From contig OZ242008.1 in NCBI GenBank assembly GCA_965204735.1, forward strand, positions 1,760,001 to 1,824,000: 64,000 nucleotides of DNA, in the 5' to 3' direction. A program made the translations under genes and the position numbers. The notes beneath the pieces were generated by a model. The model was not told the DNA's origin and did not search any database. It saw only the letters and a list, made by a program, of their open reading frames with translations. Position 1 is the first letter of the stretch; each line of letters starts with the position of its first letter. The stretch is from Longimicrobiales bacterium (GTDB taxonomy: Bacteria; Gemmatimonadota; Gemmatimonadetes; Longimicrobiales; Gaopeijiaceae). Shown one piece after another: positions 26,956 through 47,668 of this stretch.

Positions 26956-27037
26956 AGCACCTGTCTTTCCACCGCGTCTCTCCGACACGGAAACCGAAAG
27001 GCTCTTCCTTCCTTCTGCCCTTCTTTCTTTTTCGAAA

Positions 27038-28978: not shown

Positions 28979-29477
28979 CGGGGTGTTCGGCCTCGGGCCG
29001 GCTGGCGTCGAGCCTGTCGGCTCTGGGCTGCCGGTTGGCGTCGAGCCAGTCCTGGAGGATGACGGCTGCTGCTGCGGCATCGATCCTGGCCTTGTCCTCC
29101 CGCTTGGCTTTGGGAAGCCCGATCGACCGGAGACGGGCCGAAGCCTCGACCGAAGAGTAGCGCTCGTCGTGGAACTCGACCGGGAGGCGGCCCCTCTCCC
29201 CCAGCCGCTTCCCGAAGGCGCGGACTTCCGCTGTCCAGTCATTTTCGCGCCCGTCGGTGTCCAAGGGAAGCCCGACGACGACGAGCCGCACCTTGTGCCG
29301 GTCGGCCAACTGCAGAAGCTGGGCCACGGGAGGGCGCTTCCCGGTCCGGCGCTGGAGGGTGGCGAGGGGGGTCGCCAGGGTCGCGCCGACGTCGCTCATG
29401 GCGACTCCGATGCGGCGGCGGCCGTAGTCCAGTCCCATGATCCGTCCGGGCGCGCAGGCGCGGGTTTCCCCCGTCAC
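28941..29477 (-). CDS. ruvX: YqgF/RuvX pre-16S rRNA nuclease
   Basis: GLDYGRRRIGVAMSD, VVGLP, DERYSS and IDAAAAAVILQDWLD. The GTG start overlaps the helicase stop; an alternative ATG is at 29438. Confidence 0.94.
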   Translation of the reverse strand: MTGETRACAPGRIMGLDYGRRRIGVAMSDVGATLATPLATLQRRTGKRPPVAQLLQLADRHKVRLVVVGLPLDTDGRENDWTAEVRAFGKRLGERGRLPVEFHDERYSSVEASARLRSIGLPKAKREDKARIDAAAAAVILQDWLDANRQPRADRLDASRPEAEHPDARQGDRSSDRR

Positions 29478-32400
29478 GACGGGTCCTCGGCGCGGGCCAG
29501 GAGATCGGCGAAGTCGTAGTTGACGCTGGTGACGCCGAAGTCCGGTTCCCGCCGGAAGGGGCGTCGCAGGTAGCGGACCCGGTGCTCGGCCTCGTCCAGG
29601 AACTCGACGATGGCCAGGATGTAGTCGCCGGGCTTGTTCAGCGAGCAGAGGATCTCGTTGCGCGTGACGGTGATCGTGCGCGCGCCCGCAACGCGCCCCT
29701 TGACCTCGATGAAGCGAAGCTTGCCCGTGCCGGGAACTCGGCTCTCGACGTCGTAGCCCAGCCGGTCGAACTCGCGGTCCACGGGCTCGAAGCCCAGCCG
29801 GCGCTCGACCTCCATGACGGCTTCGCGAGCGCGGGCGGCGGCGGCCTGGGTGTCGCGCGGCCCGAGGGGAGCAAGAGGGGCGTCGGTCTCTTCGGCGTCC
29901 GCCCGCCCGCCGATCTCCCGGAGCAAGCCCACCGGCACGACCAGCACGCCGCCCAGCACGACAGGCGCCCGCGAAGATATCTGGCGCTCCAGTTCCAGCG
30001 CCGCCAACCGCTTCCCGAGCCGCACCTGAAGGGCGTCGGCCCGCCTGGCGGCCTCGCCGGAGGCCAAGCGGGCGCCGGCCGTGAGCCCGTCGCCGGAGTC
30101 GAGCCCGCTGTCGCTGCCCGTCGCGGAATCCGCACCGGCCCCACCCGCCGCCTCCCGAGCCTTGAGTTCCTGCGCCCGGTGGTCCCAGTAGTTGATCTCG
30201 TTGGTGAGGCGGCCCTTGACGGCGGCCTGCGTCTTGTCGATCAGCGGATGTCGAAAGCTCCTCGCTTCCTCCAGGTGCCGGGGCGCGGCCTGCGCCACGG
30301 CCCACTCCACCATGCGCGCCTCCAGTCCGTCGCCGACCCAGCCGCACTCGGGGCGGTCCAGAATGGCGGCGGTCTCCGGTTCGGCGCTGGTCAGCGGGCG
30401 ATAGTCGAGGTAGGGTGCGCACTCCACCTGCCGGATGCGGCCCGATCCGTCCATCTCCAGGTGAAGCACCTTCTTGGACACGATCCGGCGTTCGCCGCCC
30501 TGCGTCGTGCCGCCCTCCTGCACGGCGTGTTCCAGGTAGAAGAGCACCCGAGGCTCGACGCCGCCGTCGCGTTCGTCCACGAGCACCGTCCCGCGCTTCA
30601 GCAGCTCGCGGTGGCGCTCCAGCGTCAAGTCCAGGACCGCGTCCAGCAGGGGATGACCCGGGCACACGAACGCCGCCGGGGGCTGGCCGACAGGAGGCTC
30701 CATCTCCTTGTCGAAAGCGATGCGCTCGTAGCGGGACAGCACCGGCTCCCGAGCGCCCGCTGACCGACCCCGAGCGCGCACGGCGGCAGGCACGTGGGTG
30801 ACCTGATAGCGGCGAGGCTCCCGTTTCCGCGCCTTGCCGCCCAGCCGCCGAAACGCCTCGACGAAGAACGACTCCACGTAGTGCGGTTGGAGCCGGCGGG
30901 CCTCGGCGCGCTCCATCTCTTCGCGCACCTTGTGCAGCTTCCGGGCGTCGATCGCGCCGTGGGCAAGGGCTTCGTCCTCCAGCAGGTCGCGAAGCCTGTC
31001 CCGGTCCAGGGCGTGCTCCACGACCCTGTCGAGACGGGCCTTCACCTCCGGCTGCTCGCCGTAGCGCACCGCCTCCGTCAGCAGGTCGCGCAACGGCCTG
31101 CCCTCGAAGTGGAGCTTCCCCAGCACGTCGAAGACCTTGCCGCCCAGGGCCTCCCGCGCCTGCTCCAGCTTCTCGAGAAGCCGGCGGTACACGTCGCCCT
31201 CGCGGGTTTCGGCGGCGACGAGGTTCCAGATGTGGCACACCTGGCGCTGGCCGATTCGGTGGATGCGCCCGAAGCGCTGCTCGATCCGGTTGGGGTTCCA
31301 GGGCAGGTCGTAGTTCACCATCAGGTGCGCGCGTTGCAGGTTGACCCCTTCCCCCGCCGCGTCGGTGGCCAAGAGCACTTGCGTCTCGGGGTCGTGGCGG
31401 AACGCCTCCTGGGCCTTCAACCGGTCTTCGCGCCTCATGCCCCCGTGGACGACGACCAAGCTGCCGGGCCGTCCCAGCAGCGTCGCGATGCGCGTCTGCA
31501 GGTAGTCCAGCGTGTCCCGGTGTTCCGTGAAGATCACCAGCTTCTGCGTGGCCGAAGGCTTGTGCGGCGGGATTTCGCCCGCGCCGTAGGGGAGCTCGGG
31601 GGACTCCATGACGCGCCCCCGCAGGCCCGACGACGTGAAGACCTGGCGAAAGACGTCGGCCAGCTCCTGCCACTTGGCGTCCGTGCCGCTCCGAAGCACG
31701 TCCGTGGCCAGGCGTTCCAGCCGTCGCAGGACGGCGATCTCCGCCTTCAGTTCGGGGATGGTGCGGGCGGCTGTCGCCCTGCTCAGCACTTCGGCCTCGG
31801 CGGACTGTCGCTCGATCTCGGGCGCGTCTTCCAGGTCGGCAAGGGCCTCGGCGTCGTCCAGGTCGAAGGCGGGCGTCGAGGGTGCGGACTCGGCTTCTCG
31901 GAGCCGGCCCTCCAACCGCTCCCGTCGCCTTCGCAGGGAGTGGTGAATCGCGGCGGGCGACGACGCCAAGCGCCGTTGCAGGATCGTAAGGGCGAAGCCG
32001 ACGTTGCCCGCCCGCCGATCGTTCTCGAGGGCCTCGGCGCGGTTGAACTCCTCGCGCACGTACTGCGTGACCTCGGCGTACAGGTGCGCCTCGGTGTCGG
32101 ACAGCCTGTACGGCACCGTGTGGGCCTTACGCTCGGGGAAGAGGGGCGTGCCGTCGAAGCGAAGCAGCCCTTCCTTGACGACGCGACGCATGATGTCGGA
32201 CACGTCGGTCACGTGCACGCCGTCCCGGAACCGGCCCTCGAAGCGGTCGCCGTCCAGCAGCGACATGAAGAGCTGGAAGTCCTGTTCCTTGCCGTTGTGG
32301 GGCGTGGCGGTCATGAGCAGGAAGTGGCGCGTCAGCCCGGAGAGCAGCTGTCCCAGCTTGTGGCGCTTGGTGTACTTGACTTCGCCGCCGAAGTACGTGG

Positions 32401-33112
32401 CCGACATCTTGTGGGCCTCGTCGCACACCACCAAGTCCCAGCGGCACTCCGGCGCCTTGAGCAGCTCCTGCACGTCCTCGTTCCGCGACAGCTTGTCCAA
32501 GCGCGCGATGATCAGGTCCGCCTCCACGAACCAGTTGCCCGTGAGCGCCGCCTCCAGCTTGTCGTTGGCGAGGATCTCGAACGGCAGGTCGAAGCGGTCG
32601 CGCAGCTCGTCCTGCCACTGCTCCGCCAGCGCCCCCGGACACACCACCAGGCAGCGCTCCAGGTCGCCCCGAGCGACAAGCTCCCGCATGAGCAGCCCCG
32701 CCATGATCGTCTTCCCGGCTCCCGGATCGTCCGCCAGCAGGAAGCGCAGCGGCTGCCGGGGCAGCATCGTCTCGTACACCGCCGTGATCTGGTGCGGCAG
32801 CGGCTCGACGTGCGAAGTGTGGACGGCCAGCATGGGGTCGAAGAGGTGCGCCAGCCGAATCCGCAGCGCCTCCGACACCAGCCGGAACAGCGCCCCGTCG
32901 CCGTCGAAGCTCCACGGCCGCTCCTGTGCGACGACCTCCAGGCGCGCCTCGTCGTCCCGGTAGAGCAGCCTGTCGGCGATCCGGCCGTCGGGTGCCTTGT
33001 AGACGAGTTCCAGCGCTTCGGACCCGAACCACTTGATGCCGACGACGGTGGCCAGGCCGTCCGGGAGCACCCCGCGTACGGTGGTGCCGGGGGTCAGGTC
33101 TTCAAGGCGCAC
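29474..33112 (-). CDS. SNF2-family helicase with a C-terminal DUF3883 (PD-(D/E)xK-like) nuclease
   Basis: LADDPGAGKT, CDEAHK, MTATPHNG, AAGEGVNLQ and EQRFGRIHRIGQ. C-terminal GYDVES...FIEVKGR...TRNE. Confidence 0.93.
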   Translation of the reverse strand: MRLEDLTPGTTVRGVLPDGLATVVGIKWFGSEALELVYKAPDGRIADRLLYRDDEARLEVVAQERPWSFDGDGALFRLVSEALRIRLAHLFDPMLAVHTSHVEPLPHQITAVYETMLPRQPLRFLLADDPGAGKTIMAGLLMRELVARGDLERCLVVCPGALAEQWQDELRDRFDLPFEILANDKLEAALTGNWFVEADLIIARLDKLSRNEDVQELLKAPECRWDLVVCDEAHKMSATYFGGEVKYTKRHKLGQLLSGLTRHFLLMTATPHNGKEQDFQLFMSLLDGDRFEGRFRDGVHVTDVSDIMRRVVKEGLLRFDGTPLFPERKAHTVPYRLSDTEAHLYAEVTQYVREEFNRAEALENDRRAGNVGFALTILQRRLASSPAAIHHSLRRRRERLEGRLREAESAPSTPAFDLDDAEALADLEDAPEIERQSAEAEVLSRATAARTIPELKAEIAVLRRLERLATDVLRSGTDAKWQELADVFRQVFTSSGLRGRVMESPELPYGAGEIPPHKPSATQKLVIFTEHRDTLDYLQTRIATLLGRPGSLVVVHGGMRREDRLKAQEAFRHDPETQVLLATDAAGEGVNLQRAHLMVNYDLPWNPNRIEQRFGRIHRIGQRQVCHIWNLVAAETREGDVYRRLLEKLEQAREALGGKVFDVLGKLHFEGRPLRDLLTEAVRYGEQPEVKARLDRVVEHALDRDRLRDLLEDEALAHGAIDARKLHKVREEMERAEARRLQPHYVESFFVEAFRRLGGKARKREPRRYQVTHVPAAVRARGRSAGAREPVLSRYERIAFDKEMEPPVGQPPAAFVCPGHPLLDAVLDLTLERHRELLKRGTVLVDERDGGVEPRVLFYLEHAVQEGGTTQGGERRIVSKKVLHLEMDGSGRIRQVECAPYLDYRPLTSAEPETAAILDRPECGWVGDGLEARMVEWAVAQAAPRHLEEARSFRHPLIDKTQAAVKGRLTNEINYWDHRAQELKAREAAGGAGADSATGSDSGLDSGDGLTAGARLASGEAARRADALQVRLGKRLAALELERQISSRAPVVLGGVLVVPVGLLREIGGRADAEETDAPLAPLGPRDTQAAAARAREAVMEVERRLGFEPVDREFDRLGYDVESRVPGTGKLRFIEVKGRVAGARTITVTRNEILCSLNKPGDYILAIVEFLDEAEHRVRYLRRPFRREPDFGVTSVNYDFADLLARAEDPS

Positions 33113-33299
33113 GGGCGAGGCCTTGGCTGGGGTTTGACGAGGGGGACAGGGGAAGATAGGGTGACCTTACGGCGTTGGACTACATTCCGGGCAAGACGGA
33201 GGAACTCATGGATGGCTGGCACGGGGAGGTGCGGCGGGTGCGCCCGCCTAGCCCGCGTCCTCGGCGATGTGACGGGAAGCGGTCATTGGAGGACCCGAC

Positions 33300-34364
33300 G
33301 TGACACAGGCAGAGCCTCGTACTGAGACTGACGGCCGTGCTCCCAGATATTGGATGCGGTCTCTGTCATTCTTGGCGCTACATCGGATGCTGGCTGAACT
33401 TGGCTCGTTTCCTAACGGCCTACGGGCGGGCGAACTAAATCGCGTGGTCATCGAAAACAAGATACTGCATCGGCAAGGACAAGCACCTAAGCCGACAACA
33501 CTGTATCACTACCGCACCATGTTACTTCGCCTAGGCATAGTGGAACGACGCGGCCTAAAGCTGATTGTTCGATCCGACGATCGCACTGTTGTCGCTCTTC
33601 TGAATTCCCCTCCCCCCCCTGAAGGAGTCGCATCCTTGAATTCTGCTGCGAAGCATCACTTTGCAACGCTGATTCTAAGAAACAAGGACTGCTTGGCAAT
33701 GTTCTTTGGTAGGTTCATCGTTTCGTCGGAGACCGTGTCGGTATCAGACTTCCGTAGCAAGGGTGTACCTGTCAAGTACACGATACGGTATTCTGCGGAT
33801 TGTGTAGAGATTAGGCTAGAGAACTCTGTAACCGGTGACGCACCCCCAATCACATCTCCCCGCACCAGGAAAGGTTCGCCACCTATGGTTCAGGCTATAC
33901 CATACGGGATGCGCTATTGGGCTCGGGATGAACTAGGTCTTATTGATGAATACTGCCGACACGACGACGGTGGAATTGTCATGTTTCCGATACTACAACT
34001 TGACGATAGACCTAAGGGGATTGCATTGGCTGCTCGTAGAACGGCAGGCCAGATTCTGTCGCTGCGTGGACCAGAGGAATGGACCGTATTTTCGGTCGGT
34101 GATCTAATCGTCCAGTGTTGCGAACAGCGTCGACAGCCCATCTCGCTACTGTTTCGGGCGATCGACATACTAATGGACGAGTGTCCGCATTTCATAGTAG
34201 CGATTCCAACACCTAGGCGTCTGGCAACCATTACCGCTGTGTCGCCGGGCCGGGAAGAAATGGAACTCAAACAATACTATCGGTATCGAAGAGCGCACGG
34301 GCCATACGTTGCCCATATCCGCATTCATCGCGATGCTGAGCTACTCGATTCGCATGGGAGCTGA
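33300..34364 (+). CDS. Hypothetical protein, probably winged-helix DNA-binding (low GC)
   Basis: 354-aa open frame in AT-richer DNA, with RBS GGAGG. The N-terminal GLRAGELN...PTTLYHYRTMLLRLGIVERRG looks like a wHTH. Confidence 0.7.
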   Translation: MTQAEPRTETDGRAPRYWMRSLSFLALHRMLAELGSFPNGLRAGELNRVVIENKILHRQGQAPKPTTLYHYRTMLLRLGIVERRGLKLIVRSDDRTVVALLNSPPPPEGVASLNSAAKHHFATLILRNKDCLAMFFGRFIVSSETVSVSDFRSKGVPVKYTIRYSADCVEIRLENSVTGDAPPITSPRTRKGSPPMVQAIPYGMRYWARDELGLIDEYCRHDDGGIVMFPILQLDDRPKGIALAARRTAGQILSLRGPEEWTVFSVGDLIVQCCEQRRQPISLLFRAIDILMDECPHFIVAIPTPRRLATITAVSPGREEMELKQYYRYRRAHGPYVAHIRIHRDAELLDSHGS

Positions 34365-34476
34365 TTCGGTCCTTGATATGCTGAAGAGGACCAGCACCTG
34401 CATGGTCTACGATCCGTGCGGGCGCCGTGTCGAACGACAACCGAGATGAGACGATAGTGACAACCAAGACTGGGGT

Positions 34477-35010
34477 TGTTATCGGCCACTGAAAATTGCA
34501 CACTTCTGCCTCTTGACGAAGCGGTGGCGCGAGCCCTTGGGCTGTTGTCCGCGTGGATCAAGTACGCTGCGTCTTCATCCCAAGCCGGAGGAAGACACGA
34601 TGTTCAAGAGGGAGAAGCGAGTGTTGTTGCGACGCTACCTCGAGCAGGGGGGTACCGAAGGCGGAGGTCGCCCGTCGCGTCGGAGTGAGCCGGATGACGG
34701 GTCTACCACTTGGATCGAAACCCGGGCAGCTCGATCATGAACTCGACGCCGAGCCCGTGCGGTAACGGGCTCCGGCGACGGACGCCGTCGAAGCTGGACC
34801 CCTTACAAAGGCGATCATCGCCGGGCGGTTGGCCACGTACCCGAAGCTCCCGGCGTCCCCGGCTGTACCCGGGAGGTGCGGGAGTCGGGTTACCGCTCGG
34901 TCGTCCCGGTCGCGGCTCGGCAGCCGGCACCACATCGTCAACATCCGAGGCAACAGCTGGCGGACGCGACGCCATGCGGCTGAGCTGGCCAAGGCACTGG
35001 AGGGCCAGCC
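34477..35010 (+). pseudogene. Degenerate IS21-family remnant: left end, frameshifted istA 5' part joined to the istB 3' end
   Basis: End TGTTATCGGCCACTGAAAATTGCACAC. From ATG 34600, across frameshifts: MFKREKRVLLRRYLEQG/PKAEVARRVGVSR/PSKLDP. Then HHIVNIRGNSWR, typical of the IstB C-terminus. Confidence 0.78.
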
Positions 35011-35347
35011 GTTGGACGACAGTTCTGGGCGGAGGGAAGGGAATCGTGACCAAGAGCTGGGGCCGGGCCTCGCCGGAGGCGGCGGGGCAACAGGTGGCCG
35101 GGGCCCTTGGGTGGCAGTTCGAGCCGTGTGGCGGTGCCGCTACTCAAGCGGAACCGGGAGTTGAGGGCGGTGGCGGTGTCTGCCGAGATGCGGAGGTTGG
35201 ACCCGGAGTTCCGGTTTGGATCCCGGCGGACACCCGAGCGGCGGGTGTCCGCGGGCGCGGGAGTGGTCCCGCTCTCGTCATCTCCCGCCGCACGATCCCG
35301 AGCGTCTCATCTTTGAGGCTCTTCGCCTGATGTGGTGGGGAGGGACA

Positions 35348-36423
35348 TGTCAAGCCAAAGTAGAAATGTCCCCCCTGGTGGTGTGGACGATGGGTTCTTC
35401 CTGAGGCCGAGGGCCAGGTGTTGGGCGCAGGACGCGCGGCTCCAGCAAGCCTGGGCTGTACGGCGCAGGGCGCCCTGGTCCGGGCGCTTCAAGGCCAGCG
35501 GCGGCCGGGCGAGTCGAGATCGTCGCCGTGGCCAAGCTCTGGCCGGGTGGACGCCAACGCGGACGGGTCCGGACACTGCTGCCCCGATGGCTCGCAGTTC
35601 GCACTGAGCCTGCCAGCTCGGACGGTCGTGGTGCGCCGAGCGACCTGCGCAGCGCCGGCAAGCCTCGGAGGCACGGATGCCGACACCGCGGTCACGCCCG
35701 ACCTTTGCGGGAAGGGGAGTGCGACCCGCCGTCCCCGCCTGCGGGCTCAGGACGAGGCCCTGCACTGCTCGGGACCGGTCCCGTTGGAGTGGCGGCGCGG
35801 TGTTCCCGCTTGGCCACGGCCTGAGCCACGCTGGCGCTGAAGTGCTTGCTCCACGGGTGATTCCTTCCCGGCTTCGGCGGCTTGGGCCTGGGCTTGGCCG
35901 TCGCGGGCGCGGACGCCGGCTTGGGCGTCGCGGACCGGACCGATCCCAAGGCCTTGGGCGTCAGGTAGCAACCGCGATGCCGGAAGCGCAGCTCGCCCGA
36001 GAGAACGCCGTTCGACGACGACGGGGGAGCTTCAGCTCGACGCGCTCCGCCAGCAGCGTGGCGCCGAAGGCGGCGTAGTCGGGGTCCTGGCCATGGCCAG
36101 CACCCGCCCCCGCGTCTCCGACGGCAGCGACCGGTTCGACCTCCGACCCCGGAGCCCGTGCACGACCACCTCGTCGCCCGCCGCCTCGAACCGGCGGCGC
36201 ACGCGCCGGAAGTGACGTTCGGTCACCCCGAAGCGCGCCGCGCCGTCGGCCGCCGCCAGCACGCCTTCGCTCACCTGCCTCAACACCGAGATCCGGTCCC
36301 GCTCCTTCAAGCTCAACTCCATTTCGCTCCTCTCCCGGGCACGAGTTCGACTCCCGCCGAACATCGCCCGAAAGAGGACATTTCTATCTTGGTAAGACCG
36401 GACATTTCTAAATTGGCACGACA
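35348..36423 (-). mobile_element. Internally deleted IS1202-family (formerly ISNCY) element, non-autonomous
   Basis: TGT...ACA ends with IRs TGTCAAGCCAAAGTAGAAATGTCC and TGTCGTGCCAATTTAGAAATGTCC. 17-bp TSD TGTSGTGGGGAGGGACA at 35331-35347 and 36424-36440. The transposase N-terminus (ATG 36322, MELSLKERDRISVL...HGLRGRRSNR) and a C-terminal piece (PKPGRNHPW) are present, but no catalytic core. Confidence 0.85.
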
Positions 36424-36466
36424 TGTCGTGGGGAGGGACATGGAACCGGGACGGGGGCACGGCGGG

Positions 36467-37702
36467 TCAGTGCTGGGCGGGGCGCGGACAGAGGTCGAGA
36501 CCGCCGAGGTGGAAGAGAATGGCCGCGGCGAAGCGGTCCTGGTTGCGGAAGCCGCGGCACCGGGCCTTGATCGCTTGGATGCGGCTGTTGACGCCCTCGG
36601 CCGGGCCGTTGGTGGCATCAAGCACGACGGCGTTGACGATGCCCCACAGGTGCGTCCGGACCATCGCCGCCGCCTTCTCGACCGGCTCGAGCCCGGAGGC
36701 CGACGCCCATTGCAGCCAGCGCAACCACGCCGAGTGCGCCCAGCCCCGGCTGCGATATCGCCACAGCTTCGACGCCGCTTCCTTGAGCGCCCAGGCCTGG
36801 GACGTGCGCTCGACGCTCTTGCGCAACTCGGCGAACGCCAGCTTCTCGGCGTGCGTCTTCTTGCCGGCGCCCCGGAGCCACTGGTACCGCGTGCCCGCCA
36901 GCACGGCATTGCCCCGCGCCTTCAGCTCCTCGTGCTCGGCGCGCCGCACCTTGTCCACCGCGTCGCCCAGATGCTTGGCCACGTGAAAGCGGTCGAACGC
37001 CGTCTTGCTGCGCGCGTCGGCAACCCACGCCTCCGTCGCCGCCACGTAGGGCCGCCACATGTCCATCGACACGCTCTCGACCGCCGCCAGCCGCCGCTCG
37101 CCCATCGTGCGGTAGAACGCCTCCAGCGCTTCGCGGCTACGGCCCGGCGCCACGTGCAGCACGTCCTTCGTCTCCGAGTCCGACACCACCGTCACGTACT
37201 TGTGGCCCCGCTTGAACGACGTCTCGTCCACGCTCAGCCGCCGCGGCGTCTGCATCTCGCGACGTGCCAAGCCCCGGCGCACCGCGCGCTCCATGATCCC
37301 GGCGACCGCCGTCCAGCTCAAGCGCAGCCGCCGCGACACCGCAAGCACGCTCGCATCGCGCAACCAGTCGATCACCAGCGACTCGAACGCCGCCGTGTAC
37401 CTCGACCGCTCCTCCGCCCACGGCACCCGCGTCGTCGCCACCCCGTGCTCCGGACACTCCACCCGCGGCACGTCGTAGACCACGAACGTCTTGTATCCCC
37501 ATGCGTCCAGCCCGCGCCACTCCCGGCGCCGCACGTCGTAGCCCGGACACGTCCGCCCGCACTCCGGGCACCGCAACGGCGAGCCCGCCCTGCGCGCCAG
37601 CGTCACCCGCGCCTCCTGGCGCTCCGAATCCTCGTCCACGCGCTCGATCCGCCACTCCGGCCCCAGCCCCATCAGCCGCTCCACCCACTCCCGCATCTCC
37701 AT
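36467..37702 (-). CDS. ISL3-family transposase (intact)
   Basis: Zn finger CPECG...CPEHG, SVDETS, SMDMWRPY, DRFHV and TNGPAEGVNSRIQ. Confidence 0.95.
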   Translation of the reverse strand: MEMREWVERLMGLGPEWRIERVDEDSERQEARVTLARRAGSPLRCPECGRTCPGYDVRRREWRGLDAWGYKTFVVYDVPRVECPEHGVATTRVPWAEERSRYTAAFESLVIDWLRDASVLAVSRRLRLSWTAVAGIMERAVRRGLARREMQTPRRLSVDETSFKRGHKYVTVVSDSETKDVLHVAPGRSREALEAFYRTMGERRLAAVESVSMDMWRPYVAATEAWVADARSKTAFDRFHVAKHLGDAVDKVRRAEHEELKARGNAVLAGTRYQWLRGAGKKTHAEKLAFAELRKSVERTSQAWALKEAASKLWRYRSRGWAHSAWLRWLQWASASGLEPVEKAAAMVRTHLWGIVNAVVLDATNGPAEGVNSRIQAIKARCRGFRNQDRFAAAILFHLGGLDLCPRPAQH

Positions 37703-37934
37703 TCGCTCTCCTCGCTCCAAAAGTCACGCCGTCCTCCCGTCCATCCTACGGCGCCCACCGAAACAGGGGAAGAGCCATCTTTGATTCACGCAGGGATCTC
37801 ATTCTGGTAGTGGCTAGGCCTGACGGCTGGCCGGGCCGGTGAGAGCCCTAGTCCTTGGTGGCCATACGGACCCGTCCTCGGTCTGATTCCGTACCCGTCC
37901 GGGAAGCACCGCAACCGGCAGCGGACGCCATCTG

Positions 37935-37963
37935 TTGACACGAAATCGCCGTTCTGGTACCTT
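37935..37963 (+). promoter_or_regulatory. Sigma70 promoter TTGACA-17-TACCTT (TGn extended -10) heading the defence operon
   Basis: Perfect -35 box, 17-bp spacer and TG extension, about 45 nt upstream of ATG 38010. Confidence 0.75.
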
Positions 37964-38009
37964 GCTATGATCCCACCACCCACCCGCCTTGAACCGGGGA
38001 CTGCACGGA

Positions 38010-39203
38010 ATGTCGGACGTACTGCGGGCCATGAAACTCGCCTTCAATCCATTTGAGCCAACAGCCACCGGAGCCCCGTTGAGGACCCCATTGACCCCGC
38101 CGTCTCGGTTGGAACGGGATGTCCGCACGTTGCTGGATACACTTCAGGGCGGTCTAGGGGTGAAGGTGTTTGTGGTCGTGGGTGAGTATGGCTCCGGCAA
38201 GACCTGTCTCTTGCAGTGGTTGCATCGAATGGTCTTCCGTAACCTGGGAATCAAGTCATTTCTCTTTCACGACCCCGGTGTGCATTTTTATAGACTGGCA
38301 GACACGCTGCTACGGACGGTTGGTCGCAAGAATTTCGCCAAGTTCATTTGGGAACTGGCGCACTCACATGTTACATCCCCGTATCAAGGCAACCTATTCA
38401 GGAAAGGTTTTGAGGAATTCAACCTGTCGATGGGCAAACAACGTGTGTCCAGAAAAGCCGTCGAAGACAATGTTGTCACCAACCTCCAGGATGCCATCTT
38501 GCGAACGGCCATTACATCTGAAGACGAAATCGCTAACTGCCTAGCGAGAATAGTTACGCAGACGGTAACAAAGCCGTATTTTCAGTATAGAGATTTCCTA
38601 CCGCGTTCAGCTAGTGCTGTCGTGGCGCAACATCAGGAACCCTCGTACTTCGGTGCTCTCTTGCGAACAATAGCCCATGGCGAAGGCGCAGATGCCGTCG
38701 CGTTTCTCATCGACGAATTTGAGGAAATAGGATTGCAAAAACGACTCACGCAAAGGGCTGCACATGAATACCTCGCCACCTTGCGTCGGCTTATCTCATT
38801 GGCGCAGGACGAACAAACCAATTTTTGGCTTGTTCTGTCGATGACACCCGACGCCCGCGACAAGACATTTAGTTTGGACGAAGGGCTTCGTGACCGACTA
38901 CACCACGTGATACAGATCAATCCTCTAGACACCGGCAGCGCTGAAGACTTGATGCTTCGGCGTTTGCGAGCCGCGAGGTCAACCTCCGCAGACCATGATT
39001 TGTTTCCGTTTCCTGCTGATCTACTGACAAGATCCAACGGTCCGTTTCCCCCTTCAATACATTCCAATCCAAGGCGGTTAGTTCGAATTTGTTCGGTCGC
39101 GATCGCTCAGGCTAGCTCCGACACGCCCCTTCCGTTCGGCGATAGCTACTTGAAGGATATCGCCGAGCGTCTAGGTAGCAGTCGACACGAGGAGCAGTCT
39201 TGA
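38010..39203 (+). CDS. AAA+ P-loop ATPase, BrxD/DUF2791-like (ORC/Cdc6-type)
   Basis: NPF at the N-terminus, Walker A VGEYGSGKT, Walker B FLIDEFEE, LRDRL arginine finger, FPF and NPRRLV. Confidence 0.8.
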   Translation: MSDVLRAMKLAFNPFEPTATGAPLRTPLTPPSRLERDVRTLLDTLQGGLGVKVFVVVGEYGSGKTCLLQWLHRMVFRNLGIKSFLFHDPGVHFYRLADTLLRTVGRKNFAKFIWELAHSHVTSPYQGNLFRKGFEEFNLSMGKQRVSRKAVEDNVVTNLQDAILRTAITSEDEIANCLARIVTQTVTKPYFQYRDFLPRSASAVVAQHQEPSYFGALLRTIAHGEGADAVAFLIDEFEEIGLQKRLTQRAAHEYLATLRRLISLAQDEQTNFWLVLSMTPDARDKTFSLDEGLRDRLHHVIQINPLDTGSAEDLMLRRLRAARSTSADHDLFPFPADLLTRSNGPFPPSIHSNPRRLVRICSVAIAQASSDTPLPFGDSYLKDIAERLGSSRHEEQS

Positions 39204-39204
39204 C

Positions 39205-39942
39205 ATGAGTGCTGACGTCGGCAGCCCTACTGTCTCAGTAATACTGCTAGACACGAATGTATTGCATTATCTGGATTTGTACACAAAGAACGCCAAGAAG
39301 CACCGTTGGTGTCCTTTTGGCAACAAGAAGGCTGACTTTGGTTCGGACAAGAAGCTTAGGGATGCATTCCGCGATGGCAAGACGGTGATGCGTTTCATCC
39401 AAGAGAGCGGTGCCCAGGTCCAGTACTCGCCTATCTCGGAATTGGAACTACTTGCGGGGCGTTTAAGAGGCGAGGCACTGTTGAAGGCAGCTCAACAAGG
39501 GATACCACACCGAATGTGGTCACTGCATAGCGAAAACGAAGTCAGCCGCCGTCTGAAACCAAATACGTTTCGAGACGTTCATCAAGGCATCGATAACTTG
39601 CTCGATATACTTGGCAACGAGCTTGGTGTTGACGCGGTAGTGAGCCATGGAGAAAGGATGATTGAAGTATGGGACATCGCCAGAGGACTATCCAAGATAG
39701 TCTTTTTGGACCCTGCAGATTGCGTTATCTACGCCAGTGCACTGGCGGTCGGAGCGACATACTTCGTAACCGCCGACGGCTACCTTTGGCAGATGGCCAA
39801 CAAGATCAACACATCACCAAAGAAAGGTAAGGGTGCCCAGGTTCGTGCACTCTTGGCCGATGTCGGTCCGGTTGACACGGCCCCGACCTTGCCGGAGGCA
39901 AAACGACCTACAGATCTGCGCAAGTGCGCGACCGTGAAATGA
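39205..39942 (+). CDS. PIN-domain protein (extended, 245 aa)
   Basis: ILLDTNVL, SELE, DPADCVIYASA and FVTAD: the four acidic PIN positions. Confidence 0.8.
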   Translation: MSADVGSPTVSVILLDTNVLHYLDLYTKNAKKHRWCPFGNKKADFGSDKKLRDAFRDGKTVMRFIQESGAQVQYSPISELELLAGRLRGEALLKAAQQGIPHRMWSLHSENEVSRRLKPNTFRDVHQGIDNLLDILGNELGVDAVVSHGERMIEVWDIARGLSKIVFLDPADCVIYASALAVGATYFVTADGYLWQMANKINTSPKKGKGAQVRALLADVGPVDTAPTLPEAKRPTDLRKCATVK

Positions 39943-41156
39943 CCCGGTTTACGGTCACATCATCTGACGGATGGCAACGGTGGGTCACACCAACGCCGAT
40001 CAAGCAAAGAGCCATTCATAGGTGGTATGTGTTTCCCCATAGTTTTACCGACGACCTTGTGCACGCTCTAGTTGATGAATGGAATCTCGACCAATCGGAT
40101 CACATTTTCGATCCGTTTGTCGGGGCGGGCACGACATTGGTTGCAGCGAGACATAGACGAATACCGGCCCATGGTTGCGATTTGTCTCCACTGGCAGTAT
40201 TTGCGTCAAACACAAAGGTGGCAAACTATTCCGTGTCGAAACTCGAAACGATTTGGAGGCAATTGAGATTCCACCTAGGTCAGGTGTCGAGAAACTGTTG
40301 TGTGGGGGGATACTCAAAGTTGGTGCGTGAGGCACTTCCCGATGGTCGCCTTGAGGCATTTCATAACCTGGCAGGCTATGTTCTTGACCTTGGATGTACT
40401 AGTGCGGAGCGTCGATTCTTTTTGCTTGCCCTGGTATCGGTGATGCCACGGTTCAGTTATGCCGTACCGAGTGGCGGATGGCTTCGCTGGGAGAGAAGTG
40501 GTCTTGGTGCCGATAAGATCACCGAGGTGTTCTCGGAGCAAGTTGAATTGATGCTGAATGACTCGGCACATGTGTGTCAGGAATCTCGGGGTAGTTGGCA
40601 GGCAGTCAGAGCCGATGCAAGACGAATTCCGGTGCACCGAGAGCGATTTTCTGCGGTAGTTACATCACCTCCATATCCAAATAGGCACGACTATACTAGA
40701 GTGTTCGGAGTGGAACTGATGTTTGCGTTCTTAGATTGGCGGCAGAATCGGGCATTGCGTTATCAAACATTTCATTCACATCCGGAAGCACGCCCGGATC
40801 GGCCGCAGATCGACGGCTACGTGGTACCCGGGAACCTTGATGATTCTCTTGAGGCTGTTGACGACAAGCGGATACGTCGCATGTTGAGGGGATACTTTCT
40901 GGATATGTACCTCTGCCTTCGGGAGGTTGCACGAGTGTGCCGGCCCAAGGCCAGAATCGCCTTTGTAGTTGGCAACGCACAATATGCTGGCCAGTCGATA
41001 ATGGTGGACGAATTTACGGCAGAGCTAGGGGAGACGGCTGGCTTGACCTGTACAGAAATCAGAGTCGTGCGGTGGCGCGGCAATAGCGCGCAGCAAATGG
41101 GGAGGTTTGGACGCAGGGCGTCGCGGGAGAGTATCGTGATGTTTAGGAAGAGATGA
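39939..41156 (+). CDS. Amino-DNA methyltransferase, alpha motif order, SPPY (probably N4-cytosine)
   Basis: IHRWYVF, motif I FDPFVGAGTT before motif IV TSPPY, then FVVGN and RESIV. ATGA overlap with the PIN gene. Confidence 0.9.
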   Translation: MTRFTVTSSDGWQRWVTPTPIKQRAIHRWYVFPHSFTDDLVHALVDEWNLDQSDHIFDPFVGAGTTLVAARHRRIPAHGCDLSPLAVFASNTKVANYSVSKLETIWRQLRFHLGQVSRNCCVGGYSKLVREALPDGRLEAFHNLAGYVLDLGCTSAERRFFLLALVSVMPRFSYAVPSGGWLRWERSGLGADKITEVFSEQVELMLNDSAHVCQESRGSWQAVRADARRIPVHRERFSAVVTSPPYPNRHDYTRVFGVELMFAFLDWRQNRALRYQTFHSHPEARPDRPQIDGYVVPGNLDDSLEAVDDKRIRRMLRGYFLDMYLCLREVARVCRPKARIAFVVGNAQYAGQSIMVDEFTAELGETAGLTCTEIRVVRWRGNSAQQMGRFGRRASRESIVMFRKR

Positions 41157-41219
41157 CTAGTCGGGGCAGAGTCTTGGGATTCCGGTGTTCCTATGGGGAG
41201 TAGCCGAGGAGTTCACGGA

Positions 41220-42917
41220 GTGCGGCAGATGAACCCGTACCCCCGAGCCACCGACTACCGCGAGCTGCTCGGGAACGGAAGAGTGTATCGGGTCCCGCTT
41301 TACCAGCGCGACTACTCATGGACTTCGGAGCAGTGGGACGACCTTTGGACGGACATCCTGGAAGTGCGAGCAGGAAGGGAAGGCAGGCACTACCTGGGCA
41401 CACTAGTTGTCGAGTCCACGAACGATCGCGAATTCGCGGTGATCGACGGCCAGCAGCGGCTGGCAACCCTGAGCGTGCTTGCCCTTGCGGTGATCGCCAA
41501 GCTGGAGGACTTGGCGAGAGACGGGATCGATTCCGAGGCGAATTGGGAAAGGAGCAAGGCGCTCCGCAATCGCTTTGTGGGGGAGAAGGACCCAGCATCG
41601 CTCGTGGAGCACAGTCGGTTGACGCTGAACCACACCAACGACGGCTTCTATCAGGACATCCTGGTACAGCTTCGGGAGCCTCACAACCTACACGGCTTGG
41701 CGGCGTCGAATCGACAGCTGTGGGAGGCGTTCGGATACTTTCGGACGCACCTGGACGAGATGGCCGACGTGACGAACGACGGCGAAGCCCTCGCCGGCAT
41801 TCTGTCGGAGAACGTAGGCCGTGGCCTGCTGTTCATCGTCATCACCGTGGACGACGAACTGACCGCGTACACCGTGTTCGAGACGTTGAACGCCCGGGGG
41901 CTTGAGCTTACCACTACGGACTTGCTCAAGAACTTCCTCTTTTCGACGGTGCAGGTCAAGAGCGGCCGCCATGTCCTTGATCAACGCTGGCAGTCTTTGG
42001 TCACGGCCCTGGAGCCGTCTTGTTTTCCGGATTTTCTTCGGTATCACCTTCTGTGCGCTCATTCCGAGGTTCGTGGCCGTCGCTTGTTCAAGATCGTGCG
42101 AAGCGAGATCAGGAGTGCTGACGACGTTTTCAGCTTGTTCGACGCCATAGAGCCACGCGGAGAACTGTTCGCCGCACTTCGCGAACCCGCGCACGAGTAC
42201 TGGACCGACATTCCGGGTGCGAAACGCAGTGTTTCGGAACTGATTCTCTTCGAAGCGCGGTGGGCGACGCCCCTGTTGTTCGCGACGTGGGACCATCTGC
42301 CTCCCAGGGAGTTCGCCAAGTCCTTGAGGGTGGTGAGCACGATCGCCTTCCGATACTCCGTAGTTGGGCGGCTCTGCGGCGCTCGGCTTGAATCGGTCGG
42401 CCATCAGGCAGCGAAGGCCGTGACGGCTGGGGGTGTCCGAAACGCTCGAGGGCTATTCGAGGAACTGGGGTCCGTCTATGTTGAGGATGCACAATTCCGG
42501 CGAAGCTTTGCGGAACTGGCAATCGCTGGTAGTCGAAGGAAGCTGATCAAGTACGTGCTCGCCCGCCTCGAAGGCGACGCTTCGGGACGAGAGTGTGATC
42601 ATGACAACGATCCAGGGGCGGTTGAGTATATTCTGCCGAGAAACCCGTCCGACGACTGGTGCCATGCCTTTCCGGGACGCCAACGGCCCTCGGCCGTGAA
42701 TCGCTTGGGCAATTTGACCCTGGTCGAGGGCGGCATCTACGCACGGATTGGAAACGCGGGCTATCGGGAGAAAGTTGTGGAGTACGGCAAGAGCGCGTAC
42801 GCTTTGACCCACGAGGTATCGGAACTCGCGCCGGAGGACTGGAACTGGTCATCGCTGGAGAAGCGCCAAGTGCTCATGGCTGAACGAGCAACCGACTTGT
42901 GGCGAGTGGAGGTATGA
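41220..42917 (+). CDS. DUF262-DUF1524 (GmrSD-like type IV restriction) protein with substituted HNH residues
   Basis: VPLYQRDYSW, IDGQQRL and FETLNARG. C-terminal VEYILP...LGNLTL. Start GTG 41220 follows GAGGAG; an alternative ATG is at 41193. Confidence 0.88.
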   Translation: MRQMNPYPRATDYRELLGNGRVYRVPLYQRDYSWTSEQWDDLWTDILEVRAGREGRHYLGTLVVESTNDREFAVIDGQQRLATLSVLALAVIAKLEDLARDGIDSEANWERSKALRNRFVGEKDPASLVEHSRLTLNHTNDGFYQDILVQLREPHNLHGLAASNRQLWEAFGYFRTHLDEMADVTNDGEALAGILSENVGRGLLFIVITVDDELTAYTVFETLNARGLELTTTDLLKNFLFSTVQVKSGRHVLDQRWQSLVTALEPSCFPDFLRYHLLCAHSEVRGRRLFKIVRSEIRSADDVFSLFDAIEPRGELFAALREPAHEYWTDIPGAKRSVSELILFEARWATPLLFATWDHLPPREFAKSLRVVSTIAFRYSVVGRLCGARLESVGHQAAKAVTAGGVRNARGLFEELGSVYVEDAQFRRSFAELAIAGSRRKLIKYVLARLEGDASGRECDHDNDPGAVEYILPRNPSDDWCHAFPGRQRPSAVNRLGNLTLVEGGIYARIGNAGYREKVVEYGKSAYALTHEVSELAPEDWNWSSLEKRQVLMAERATDLWRVEV

Positions 42918-45814
42918 CAGCCATGGAGCGCAAGAAGCTGATCGAGGTCGCGCTTCCGCTGGACGCGATCAACGCGGCGTCGGCGCGTGAGAAGTTGATC
43001 CGTCATGGGCATCCGAGTACGCTGCACCTTTGGTGGGCGCGACGACCGCTAGCGGCGGCCCGGGCCGTCATCTTCGCACAGATGGTGGACGATCCGTCGG
43101 AGTGGCCTGAGCTGTTTCCGACGGAGGCTGAACAGGATGCGGAACGTGAGCGGCTATTCAAGCTGATCGAAGAGCTGGTCAAGTGGGAGAACACCACGAA
43201 CGAGGATGTGCTGGGGCGGGCGCGTCGGAAGATACGGGATAGCTGGCGGCGGACCTGCGAGAGCCATGCAGATGCCCGGTCCGCGACGGAGCTGTTCGAC
43301 CCAACCCGCCTGCCGGCGTTCCATGATCCGTTCGCGGGCGGCGGAGCGTTGCCGTTGGAGGCGCAACGACTCGGTTTCGAGGCCCATGCGAGTGACCTGA
43401 ATCCGGTCGCCGTCCTGATCAACAAGGCGATGATCGAGATTCCGCCGAAGTTCGCGGGCCGTCCGCCCGTAAACCCGGAATGGCGCAACAAGCCGGACGA
43501 AGAGAAGGCTCTCTCGACATGGAGCGGTGCGCAGGGCTTGGCGGAGGACGTGCGCTACTACGGCAACTGGATGCGGGACGAGGCCCAGGAGCAGATCGGC
43601 GACCTGTATCCGACGGCGTGCATTTCCAAGGAGATGTGCCGCGGGCGCCCGGACCTAAAGAAGTACGAGGGTCGGGAACTGACGGTAATCGCGTGGCTGT
43701 GGGCGCGGACGGTTCGAAGCCCGAACCCGGCTTTCGCGAATATAGAGGTACCGCTGGTGTCGTCGTTCTGGCTGTCGAGGAAGAAGGGGAAGGAGGCGTG
43801 GTTACGGCCGGTGGTGGATGGTCGGAAGTGGCGGTTCGAGGTTCGGAAGGGGGTGTCGGGGGACCCGGAGGCGGTGGGGAGAGGGACGAAACTATCGAGG
43901 GGGTCCAACTTCCGGTGCTTGGTGTCCGGTACGCCGATTGGGCCGGAGTGGATCAGAGCGGAGGGACAGGCAGGCCGTATGGGCGCGCAACTAACGGCCG
44001 TAGTTGCCGAGGGAGATCGGGAGCGGGTGTATCTGAACCCGAAGTTGAGGCATGAGACAGCCGCGGCGACAGCCACCCCGGATTGGGGGCCGGAGGGCGA
44101 TGTCCCCAAACGACTCACCGGTGGTACCTGCTACGGTTATGGCCTCACCGAGTGGCGGGATCTCTTCACGTCTCGCCAGTTGGTGGCCCTGACGACATTC
44201 GCGGACTTGGTGGCGAAAGCGCGGAACCGGGCCGAGCGTGACGCAAAGGCGGCCGGGATGCGCGACGACGGCAAAGCACTGCGACACGGTGGAAGGGGAG
44301 CCATGGGCTACGGAGAGGCGGTGGCTCTGTACCTTGGCTTGACTGTCGGACGCCTAGCCAATCGGGGTTGCACGTTGTCGTTCTGGAACATTACGGGTCA
44401 AAAAATTGAACAAGTTTTTGCCCGTCAGGCTTTGCCAATGGTCTGGGATTTCTGCGAGTCCAATCCCTTCAGCAGTTCGAGCGGCAACTGGCTGGGCCAG
44501 CTCGTTTGGCCGGCCAAAGTCGTACAGCAGTTGCCGACTGCCAAGCCAGGCGTCGTGTGCCAGGAGGACGCGCAACAGCAGCGACTTTCGATCGGAAAGG
44601 TCGTATCCACCGACCCGCCGTACTACGACAATATTGGCTACGCCGACCTTTCAGATTTTTTCTACGTGTGGTTGCGCCGGTCGCTGGCAAGCCAGTTCCC
44701 TGATCTGTTCCTATCCATCACGGTGCCCAAGGCCGAGGAGTTGGTGGCAACGCCCTATCGTCACGGTGGCAAGACCGAAGCTGAACGGTTTTTCCTGGCT
44801 GGCATGGTTCAGGCGATGCGACGGTTGGCCCTCGATTCGCATCCTGCCTGTCCCGTCACTATCTACTACGCGTTCAAACAGTCCGAGAGCAGGGGAGCAG
44901 ACGGCCGTGCGAGCACCGGGTGGGAGACCTTCCTCCAGGCCGTGGCCGATGTGGGCTTCGCGATCACCGGCACATGGCCCGTCCGAACTGAGCTCACTGG
45001 CAGCCTCAAGAAGACAATCGCCGCCCTCGCTTCCTCGATCGTCCTCGTCTGCCGCAAACGCTCTACTGGTAGTGGAGCCAGGGAGATCACTCGTCGTGAG
45101 TTCCAGGACGCTCTCGCCAGTGAATTACCTGAGGCCCTGCGCAAGCTACGGACCACCAACATTGCCCCGGTTGACTTGGCCCAGGCGGCGATCGGGCCCG
45201 GAATGGCGATCTTCACACGCCACGCGGCCGTCCTCCTCCCAGACGGTAAGCCGGTCAAGGTTCGTGAGGCGCTCCGGCTGATCAACCAAGCCCTGGACGA
45301 GGCCCTCGAAGGCGATTTCGACGGCGACACGCGCTGGGCCGTTGCTTGGTTTGCGTCCCACGGATTCGAGGCCGGCGAATTCGGAGTCGCCGATGTGCTG
45401 GCCAGGGCGAAGAACATCAGCATCGACGGTTTGGTGGAAGCCGGTGTCCTGGAGTCGACGGGCGGGCAGGTTCGCCTGCTTCGGCCTTCGGAGCTGATGG
45501 AGGACTGGAAACCCGGCGAGAATGGACAGCCAACGACTTGGGAGAAGACGCATCATCTTCTGAAGGTGTATGCGGAATCCGGTGAGATCGGTGCCGCGAA
45601 GCTGCTGGACAGGCTTGGTCTAATCGACGATGCGGTCCGCGATCTGGCGTACAGCAACTACCTGATCTGTGAGCGCAAGAAGTGGAGCACCGCGGCATTC
45701 GGATACAACGCCCTGGTGCAGAGTTGGCCCGAGATCGCGCGACAAGCGAGGATGAAGCCCTGGTTAGTGGAATCGGCGCAGATCGAGATGGGGGAAGACT
45801 CCGATGCTGACTAG
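42914..45814 (+). CDS. DUF1156-domain adenine DNA methyltransferase
   Basis: KKLIEVALPL, LHLWWARRPLA, DPFAGGG and TDPPYYDNIGYADLSDFF. Confidence 0.93.
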   Translation: MTAMERKKLIEVALPLDAINAASAREKLIRHGHPSTLHLWWARRPLAAARAVIFAQMVDDPSEWPELFPTEAEQDAERERLFKLIEELVKWENTTNEDVLGRARRKIRDSWRRTCESHADARSATELFDPTRLPAFHDPFAGGGALPLEAQRLGFEAHASDLNPVAVLINKAMIEIPPKFAGRPPVNPEWRNKPDEEKALSTWSGAQGLAEDVRYYGNWMRDEAQEQIGDLYPTACISKEMCRGRPDLKKYEGRELTVIAWLWARTVRSPNPAFANIEVPLVSSFWLSRKKGKEAWLRPVVDGRKWRFEVRKGVSGDPEAVGRGTKLSRGSNFRCLVSGTPIGPEWIRAEGQAGRMGAQLTAVVAEGDRERVYLNPKLRHETAAATATPDWGPEGDVPKRLTGGTCYGYGLTEWRDLFTSRQLVALTTFADLVAKARNRAERDAKAAGMRDDGKALRHGGRGAMGYGEAVALYLGLTVGRLANRGCTLSFWNITGQKIEQVFARQALPMVWDFCESNPFSSSSGNWLGQLVWPAKVVQQLPTAKPGVVCQEDAQQQRLSIGKVVSTDPPYYDNIGYADLSDFFYVWLRRSLASQFPDLFLSITVPKAEELVATPYRHGGKTEAERFFLAGMVQAMRRLALDSHPACPVTIYYAFKQSESRGADGRASTGWETFLQAVADVGFAITGTWPVRTELTGSLKKTIAALASSIVLVCRKRSTGSGAREITRREFQDALASELPEALRKLRTTNIAPVDLAQAAIGPGMAIFTRHAAVLLPDGKPVKVREALRLINQALDEALEGDFDGDTRWAVAWFASHGFEAGEFGVADVLARAKNISIDGLVEAGVLESTGGQVRLLRPSELMEDWKPGENGQPTTWEKTHHLLKVYAESGEIGAAKLLDRLGLIDDAVRDLAYSNYLICERKKWSTAAFGYNALVQSWPEIARQARMKPWLVESAQIEMGEDSDAD

Positions 45815-47183: not shown

Positions 47184-47665
47184 GGCGGCTCTCCGTGGTG
47201 CTGGACACGAACGTAGCGCATGTCGCCAACGGGCGGACGCCTCAGGCCAGCCCGAGTTGCGTGACAGCGTGCATTGACCGAATGGATCGGATCGTTCAGG
47301 GAAAGGAGCGGCTGGTTCTGGACGATCAAGACCGCATTCTCAAGGAATACCCGACGCCCACCGGGCAGCTGGGAGCCGGTCACGCCTTCGTCAAGTGGGT
47401 CTGGACCAACCGCTACAACTCGGCGCTCTGCGAACTCGTCGCGATCCATGCTCACGAGGCCCGCGGCTTTGTTGAGTTCCCTGAGGACGACAGCTTAGCC
47501 ACGTTCGACTCAGACGACCGCAAGTTCGTCGCCGTCGCCCTTGCCAGCGGGGGCTCGCCGCCGATCGTCAACGCCACAGACACAGGGTGGCGCGACCATC
47601 AGGAAGTGCTGGCCCGACACGGCGTCCACATCGACTTCATCTGCCCCGAACTCATGGAGAAGTAG
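47180..47665 (+). CDS. PIN-like domain protein
   Basis: VLDTNV, ILKEY, DSDDRKFVAVA and NATD. ATGA overlap with the ATPase. Confidence 0.78.
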   Translation: MRRLSVVLDTNVAHVANGRTPQASPSCVTACIDRMDRIVQGKERLVLDDQDRILKEYPTPTGQLGAGHAFVKWVWTNRYNSALCELVAIHAHEARGFVEFPEDDSLATFDSDDRKFVAVALASGGSPPIVNATDTGWRDHQEVLARHGVHIDFICPELMEK

Positions 47666-47668
47666 GTC

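Follow-up and report, generated by a model that had tools for sequence, protein, structure and literature searches.

A conserved four-gene unit joining a winged-helix protein and an ORC/Cdc6-clade ATPase to a PIN nuclease and a predicted m4C methylase: a candidate methylation-gated defence system

Background

Pairs of a triple winged helix-turn-helix (wHTH) protein and an ORC/Cdc6 ATPase are described in the main text of two studies (PMC10853773, PMC12839542) together with phosphorothioate genes, restriction endonuclease (REase)-ASCH genes, HerA capture modules, BREX and BRC; a pairing with a PIN nuclease and an N4-methylcytosine (m4C) methylase does not appear in that text. Here we describe such a combination in a stretch of 64,000 nucleotides (nt) from a Longimicrobiales bacterium (GenBank assembly GCA_965204735.1, contig OZ242008.1, positions 1,760,001 to 1,824,000), to which we refer as the window and from the first letter of which all coordinates are counted. 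The four genes, which an earlier note on the same DNA had put forward as an undescribed defence module, are the following:

33300..34364, plus strand: W, 354 aa, triple winged-helix protein, predicted DNA-recognition subunit
38010..39203, plus strand: A, 397 aa from ATG, predicted ORC/Cdc6-clade AAA+ ATPase without a C-terminal winged helix
39205..39942, plus strand: P, 245 aa, extended PIN-domain nuclease, candidate effector
39939..41156, plus strand: M, 405 aa from ATG, alpha-order amino-methyltransferase, predicted to act on N4 of cytosine

As far as checked, the unit is a variant of the Ssp/BREX-related, methylation-based kind but a member of none of the described systems. In agreement with the earlier note, no named system was matched in a comparison covering PADLOC 2023, NCBIfam and the open-access literature, the gene-neighbourhood supplements of PMC10853773 and PMC12839542 lying outside it, and within that scope the unit has no name. 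The pair of W and A resembles the Ssp arrangement, where an SspB-like triple wHTH protein stands beside an ORC/Cdc6 ATPase, although the match of W to SspB is itself weak. It differs from Ssp in that the predicted mark is m4C from a single methylase, without SspA or SspD, and in that the effector is a PIN protein instead of SspE; PADLOC models found no PAPS-reductase-like SspD, either at the window locus or in the 111 nearest neighbours of related loci. BREX and MANTIS (Gao_RL) are similar in the possibly BrxA-like fold of W, the ORC/Cdc6 ATPase and the presence of a DNA methylase, and BrxD, like A, lacks extra DNA-binding domains (PMC12839542, main text). In contrast to BREX, the unit has no PglZ, BrxB, helicase or DUF499 protein, and M is of the SPPY/alpha type whereas BREX and BR systems use N6-adenine methylases (same source, main text).

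With type II restriction-modification (R-M) systems that have alpha-class m4C methylases (AvaI/BsoBI type; M.DraR1) the unit shares the order of FxGxG followed by SPPY, but in place of an REase it has three dedicated partners; no endonuclease of the PD-(D/E)xK, HNH, PLD or GIY-YIG type was recognised among the four genes. The McrBC-like LlaI/BsuMI systems follow the same logic of a methylase, a separate DNA-binding subunit, an AAA+ motor and a nuclease. However, domain 1 of LlaI.R1 is ERCC4-like whereas W is a winged-helix protein (a FokI-like nature of LlaI.R1, considered at first, was rejected), and LlaI/BsuMI uses an McrB-clade motor and the McrC nuclease where the unit has an ORC/Cdc6-fold ATPase and a PIN protein; Pfam gave no AAA_5 or McrC match in the unit. 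MANTIS and LlaI share the logic of the unit and not its parts. A final likeness is to HEC-03, an ATPase with a PIN effector found within Hma islands, of which the window has a copy at 45804-47665. Both HEC-03 genes are required for defence according to 10.1101/2024.01.29.577857. The HEC-03 ATPase is of the ABC and not the AAA+ kind, neither a methylase nor a reader accompanies it, and there is no profile match to the unit.

Conservation of the four-gene unit

A list of open reading frames (ORFs) places all four genes on the plus strand where the earlier note had put them, and the junctions that it gave are exact: a 1-nt gap between A and P (TGA C ATG) and an ATGA overlap between P and M. An in-frame TTG at 37989 allows an alternative A of 404 aa. 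The set totals ~4.2 kb, with frames and motifs intact in all four genes of this copy. Its low GC content, which the note had illustrated with two lines of sequence (27/60 and 50/60, both counts exact), is borne out over whole genes, at 0.522-0.527 each compared to 0.693 for the genome; at third codon positions W, A, P and M have 0.50-0.57 and the neighbouring hmaA and hmaC 0.91. GC this low occurs in ~0.1% of 4138 genome windows of 3 kb. A second low-GC stretch (0.58-0.60) lies at 24001-27000, to the left of the island that holds the unit.

A search of GTDB genomes with the ATPase alignment yielded 78 loci. All four genes are present at 70% profile cover or more in 60 of these, and part of each is found in 63; among the 68 loci with at least 2 kb on both sides, the corresponding numbers are 56 and 59. 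Metagenomes, searched with the W alignment, provided 18 loci, nine of them complete (five of the six with enough flank). Four metagenome loci duplicate GTDB ones, which reduces 66 complete modules to 62, distributed over 13 bacterial phylum labels. In 350 archaeal genomes the W profile had three matches, one of which (L121) repeats L047 while the other two are M-W-A-P loci with far more distant ATPases. The co-occurrence that the earlier note had made a test of its proposal is thus found, and W, A, P and M are one conserved unit, even though W is split off in the window.

Within the unit W and A are the closest partners. The end of W lies between about -38 and +23 nt relative to the start of the ATPase gene in each of the 76 adjacent pairs measured, and W was almost never found without A in the ATPase-anchored GTDB loci and W-anchored metagenome loci. 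The two are fused in L004, in L036, in P0340 and in all six longer W homologues; the six are 81-90% identical to one another and P0340 is only 31% identical to them, so fusion took place in two or more lineages far apart from each other. The genes W, A and P nearly always stand in this order, and at least part of the PIN gene is present in 70 of the 78 ATPase loci. M, by comparison, is found downstream, upstream, inverted (L083, L085) or 2.8 kb off, with two other genes in between. Across the 62 modules, Spearman correlations of pairwise identity are 0.94-0.96 for W, A and P with one another and 0.84-0.87 when M is one of the two, all values being inflated by relatedness. From the fixed order and the lower correlation with M we infer that W, A and P probably work as one machine and that M is a separate enzyme.

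A six-gene form exists in seven loci, each with a single M, where a NurA-like and a HerA-like gene join the cassette either between P and M (L067, L069, L070, L073) or upstream of W (L041, L043, L087); an eighth case (L071) has a cut-off NurA. Decayed copies are common (L015, L017, L034, L037, L050, L065, L068, L075, L078). In one locus a second, weaker match to the W profile (E 2e-27; L020:3782-5131) lies 4 kb upstream of the cassette.

The cassette is rare, patchy and mobile, and many of its hosts are uncultured. Besides the centre genomes, the W profile matched none of 300 genomes sampled from its own phylum and none in phylum samples of 350 and 400 genomes. No real match was present in 60 relatives, three of them of the same genus, and searches of 72,556 plasmids and of viral contigs with the ATPase found nothing.

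Predicted properties of the four proteins

The AlphaFold2 model of W (mean predicted local distance difference test score, pLDDT, 92.5) consists of three helix-helix-helix-wing units. Its best fold match is the recognition domain of FokI (Z 9.5, root-mean-square deviation (rmsd) 3.6, 172 residues aligned), followed among the long matches by N.BspD6I (Z 7.9), BrxA (Z 7.5) and the protein of entry 3bhw (Z 7.5). The BrxA match (rmsd 4.7, 163 aligned) is at background level, and the full-length Foldseek row for SspB is weak (E 0.08-0.14, template modelling (TM) score 0.27-0.29). The fold scores are modest but in agreement, and they suggest that the triple winged helix of W comes closest to the FokI recognition domain, BrxA and SspB. 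Atlas clusters of DpdG (0.87) and FokI D1-D3 (0.88), both below 0.9, are leads only. Foldseek gave no match to W at E <= 0.001, and the profiles of W, the ATPase and the PIN protein found nothing significant among PDB sequences. No Pfam or PADLOC family was matched by more than one of 94 W homologues, the window protein matched none of the PADLOC families, and the PADLOC SspB model was matched by none of the 94. There are 217 representatives of W homologues at 50% clustering (E <= 0.001). Conservation of the protein peaks in the recognition helices of the first two winged-helix units (0.64 and 0.61, compared to 0.25-0.53 elsewhere), which suggests a common target across the W family. Model, fold search, Pfam/PADLOC comparison and residue conservation all agree with the note in showing W as a winged-helix protein in which no type II REase can be recognised.

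A is modelled as a compact ORC/Cdc6-clade AAA+ protein that ends without a winged helix. Its five best fold matches are all ORC/Cdc6 proteins (Z 13.6-15.2), among them ORC2 at 15.2 and Cdc6 at 15.0; TnsC at 13.6 and BrxC at 12.6 (311 aligned) come next, and Foldseek likewise points to Cdc6/Orc1 (E 5.7e-5). Walker A (G58-x-Y-G-x-G-K64), Walker B (D235-E-F-E238), R296 and R355 are present in all 82 aligned rows. The designation BrxD-like in the earlier note consequently needs to be divided: the protein is an AAA+ ATPase but not a BrxD orthologue, since it scores 20.8 bits with the BrxD model NF033438, where 350 are required. The match to PF10923 exceeds the threshold only over 34 residues around Walker A.

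The PIN domain that the note had recognised in P is supported by Pfam (25.7 bits, cut-off 23.6), and P matches Atlas PIN clusters at 0.92. Of 75 rows, 66 have the full set of acidic residues D16, E81, D172 and D191; among the other nine, two sequences are cut short, one has E in place of D16 and six have Q or D at position 81. Profile and active-site residues together identify P as a predicted PIN nuclease of the VapC-like group. None of the PADLOC families matched P, and no model was matched by more than one of 52 PIN homologues. Upstream of P there is no VapB-type gene, the ATPase stop codon lying 1 nt before the P start, and likewise in homologues. PINs of the VapC type are mostly RNases. 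We consider RNA, with growth arrest of the infected cell, a marginally better candidate for the PIN target than invading DNA; the six-gene form with NurA and HerA speaks for DNA.

M has DPFxGxGTT at residues 58-66 and SPPY at 243-246, invariant in 68 of 68 rows, and matches the PADLOC model MTase_II over residues 9-404 with 178.9 bits. An early FxGxG followed by SPPY is given as the m4C signature of alpha-class enzymes in PMC10855626, and M is predicted to be an alpha-type SPPY enzyme with an m4C product. Its plasmid relatives (25-26% identity) adjoin type II REases, and the relative with 25% identity lies next to one of the AvaI/BsoBI type. A plasmid locus with related methylases and an AAA gene (L101:4923-11157) was set aside, as it has no homologue of W, A or P; this operon encodes a pair of related alpha-type methylases together with a 389-aa protein of unknown kind, an AAA ATPase and a 415-aa protein, the last of them McrBC-like as judged by eye.

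Proposed mechanism and alternative explanations

We propose, with a probability of roughly 0.6, that the cassette is a minimal, mobile, methylation-gated defence system on the SspB-SspC/BrxA-BrxC plan, in which M would mark self and the W-A pair would license the PIN nuclease. M, probably alone as is the case for type II alpha-class enzymes, would N4-methylate cytosine within a short host motif. W would read DNA with its two conserved recognition helices, bind sites that lack the mark and nucleate the ORC/Cdc6-type ATPase there, much as TniQ/TnsD loads TnsC. The loading step is also analogous to that of SspBC as proposed in PMC10853773. The ATP-bound W-A assembly would then recruit the PIN nuclease and switch it on. 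Linkage, co-inheritance, the W-A fusions, the folds, the intact catalytic motifs and the defence-island setting are the grounds found in our analysis; from these we infer the mark, its motif, the order of events, the substrate of the PIN protein and the anti-phage effect.

Several observations weigh against this proposal. In L031:8767-11950 (a one-contig genome) and L036:8978-11941 (a draft genome) W, A and the PIN protein look intact, with all four PIN acids present, and there is no close M in either the locus or the genome (best E 1e-10 and 2e-15); such hosts ought to be killed by a classical R-M effector, and loci of this kind complicate a simple model where unmethylated DNA triggers the PIN nuclease. 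Two further loci (L052, L071) also lack M, but their contigs end beside P. The catalytic E81 is replaced by Q or D in six Actinomycetota PIN copies (L056, L058-L062). No recognition motif is depleted in the 259 kb of module DNA (62 modules) relative to codon-shuffled controls; the test revealed only general avoidance of TA and no candidate site. The fold matches of W are modest (Z 9.5 compared to a background of 7-8). The loci are related to one another and many come from sponge-type metagenome-assembled genomes, and the profiles for P and M derive from the very loci that they score, although the single window proteins had already matched P and M there.

The M-less loci would also fit an explanation in which W and A serve modification, loading or activating M in the way of SspBC in phosphorothioation and of MtsA in MANTIS, with the PIN protein as a guard toxin that is freed when a phage protein (a DNA mimic or an anti-restriction factor) disturbs the complex, so that methylation is not the trigger. 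We regard this as rather unlikely. The tolerance of M-less W-A-P loci is consistent with it, as is the fact that the cassette often adjoins type I, type IIG or Hma genes, which the PIN protein could guard. Related systems offer parallels: SspB and SspC act in modification according to PMC12707154; MANTIS methylation needs an ORC/Cdc6 ATPase, and MANTIS tolerates the loss of its methylase, which is there the targeting subunit (both from 10.64898/2026.09.23.753747). The latter would fit W and A serving M with P as a guard toxin. PIN RNases are, moreover, described as back-up effectors of BREX-like systems in the main text of PMC12839542. However, the relatives of M function next to ordinary type II REases where there is no ATPase, both gene order and identity correlation show M to be the most loosely linked of the four, and the PIN gene occurs too regularly at the ATPase loci to be an optional add-on. 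The cassette could also be a selfish addiction module, in which the PIN toxin is set off once the mark becomes diluted following cassette loss, and anti-phage activity is absent or incidental. A rare, patchy cassette of foreign GC content, with a toxin-type PIN but no VapB gene and with many decayed copies, would agree with such a module, and we nevertheless hold it to be improbable given the M-less loci with intact W-A-P, the frequent defence neighbours and the complete lack of ATPase matches in plasmids and viral contigs.

A different division of labour, in which W itself cuts DNA as an SspB-like nickase or unusual type II REase paired with M while A and P are accessory, is disfavoured by its structural model, which matches FokI only in the recognition part (residues 9-269) and has no space left for a nuclease domain. 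There is no conserved lysine for a PD-(D/E)xK site, the longer homologues are all fusions to the ATPase and none to a nuclease, and W hardly ever occurs without A. SspB, its structural relative, may nick DNA (PMC12707154), H70, D130, D216, E217 and H339 are kept in at least 89% of 94 W homologues, and relatives of M do partner type II REases, which together leave this explanation only a slim chance. Slimmer still is the chance of a function outside defence, as a methylation-dependent regulator or a DNA-maintenance module of mobile elements. Fold matches do link ORC/Cdc6 and winged-helix proteins to replication and transposition as well, and 29 of 57 complete loci have no nearest neighbour that matches PADLOC; on the other hand, no conserved replication or transposase partner of the cassette was seen, the settings include Hma, type I, type IIG and DISARM genes, and the nuclease looks active from its predicted residues.

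Beyond the methylation-gated reading that we prefer, a broader and tentative idea, which we think doubtful as it stands, is that W-A-P is a portable restriction machine: a VapC-type PIN protein would cut DNA, and not RNA, once a FokI-like stand-alone reader has loaded the ORC-like ATPase, and the machine could be combined with various self-marks and with NurA-HerA as a resection module that completes the task. According to PMC5499597, PIN nucleases had not been shown to be restriction modules as of 2017, and that study saw none together with type II-like R-M genes.

Separation of W from the ATPase gene in this genome

W and A are separated here by 3.6 kb of insertion sequence (IS) DNA. The spacer is indeed the IS pile-up that the earlier note had described, made of an IS21 remnant, an ISL3 element and a second IS nested in the latter:

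~34477..35074, plus strand: IS21-family remnant (istA start, istB piece); pieces 82-95% identical to IS21-like copies elsewhere in the genome
35317..37776, minus strand: ISL3 element with inverted repeats; transposase 36467-37720 (Pfam DDE_Tnp_ISL3)
35344..36427: nested, internally deleted IS within the ISL3 element
37935..37963, plus strand: possible promoter of the A-P-M operon, TTGACA-N17-TACCTT with TG ahead of the -10, found by eye

The ISL3 element is flanked by an 8-bp target duplication, ATCTTTGA, and a 2460-bp copy with 100% identity exists elsewhere in the genome; judging by this copy, ISL3 and the nested deleted IS move as one unit. The family of the nested IS has a dozen longer copies in the genome.

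A promoter before A is plausible, but the note overstated it as near-consensus: the second hexamer, TACCTT, agrees at only three of six positions, and a better-looking TATGAT lies 25 nt from TTGACA, which is too far. A promoter scan listed no plus-strand sigma-70 site in 33000-41400. In L008 a TTGACG-N17-CATCAT stands at a similar place ahead of the ATPase gene. L008 (9989-14349) is also the only further locus with a detached W, which lies inverted behind M, and the window copy pairs with it in FastTree trees of both A (support 99) and M (support 96). Because of this grouping, W may have been detached before the IS pile-up formed, and it was kept in both cases. In the window W is a separate transcription unit that would act in trans.

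Sequencing runs X2 and X5 contain contigs that cover A-P-M without any difference from the window, and X2 and X4 contain such contigs for W; one of these runs may stem from the source sample itself. In a related strain (X6) both W and A-P-M are present with ~1-3% differences, and its contigs depart from the window sequence at 34434 and 37993. Since GAAC is found at both ends of the insert (34432-34435 and 37991-37994), where X6 departs, the gap between W and A seems to be an insertion hotspot. No direct joint of W to the ATPase gene (an empty site) was among the joints listed in four sequencing runs.

The Hma island and other neighbours

The unit is cargo in an Hma island, between hmaA and hmaB/hmaC, a setting that the earlier note had overlooked:

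29474..33112, minus strand: hmaA, SNF2 helicase-nuclease (PADLOC HmaA, 1570.7 bits)
41193..42917, plus strand: HEC-06 GmrSD-like gene, a separate cargo (PADLOC HEC-06, 603.9 bits)
42899..51034, plus strand: hmaB, the HEC-03 pair and hmaC (PADLOC HmaB 1420.5, HEC-03B 488.4, HEC-03A 103.5 and HmaC 1059.3 bits)

Hma islands are described as a hotspot for embedded defences in 10.1101/2024.01.29.577857. The Hma genes are missing from most related loci and are consequently not part of the unit. The same absence from most related loci applies to the DUF499 ATPase, the DUF1156 adenine methylase and the SF2 helicase-nuclease, which are separate neighbours here, and no match to the HEC-06 gene was found beside any of 96 related loci. 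hmaA lies on the strand opposite to hmaB and hmaC and diverges from W, whereas in L032, with the cassette between hmaA and hmaB, all genes are on one strand. Beyond hmaC (51054-55678) are ORFs of 213 and 187 aa without a PADLOC match, a ParA-like-looking ORF in two frames (52364-53298, by eye) and a Fic-domain gene that matches SoFic (53999-55678).

Across related loci the neighbours vary and include type I and type IIG R-M, Hma, DISARM, Septu-like and other genes. The nearest neighbours were scanned with PADLOC at E <= 1e-8, on ORFs chosen by a rough criterion and truncated at 650 aa; 28 of 57 complete GTDB loci have a matching nearest neighbour (31 of 111 ORFs, a count with no background rate alongside). 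The absence of a linked PglZ, stated in the note, extends to these loci, with none among the 111 neighbours and with PF08665 absent from all four other module-bearing genomes searched. The genome of the window itself has two PglZ-domain (PF08665) copies, both more than 1.6 Mb from the locus; it is rich in BREX-related systems, with several further Hma/DUF499-like loci that hold HmaA, HmaB and HmaC homologues.

Conclusions

The value of the unit rests on its predicted function. How a winged-helix reader and an ORC/Cdc6 ATPase are coupled to marking and restriction in BREX and Ssp is still an open question, partly because these systems have six to eight subunits. With four small soluble genes, natural W-ATPase fusions, and methylase-less, split and NurA-HerA forms, the unit may offer the simplest setting in which to study that coupling. 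If our proposal is true, it would be, within the literature checked, the first methylation-gated system with a PIN protein as its only nuclease.

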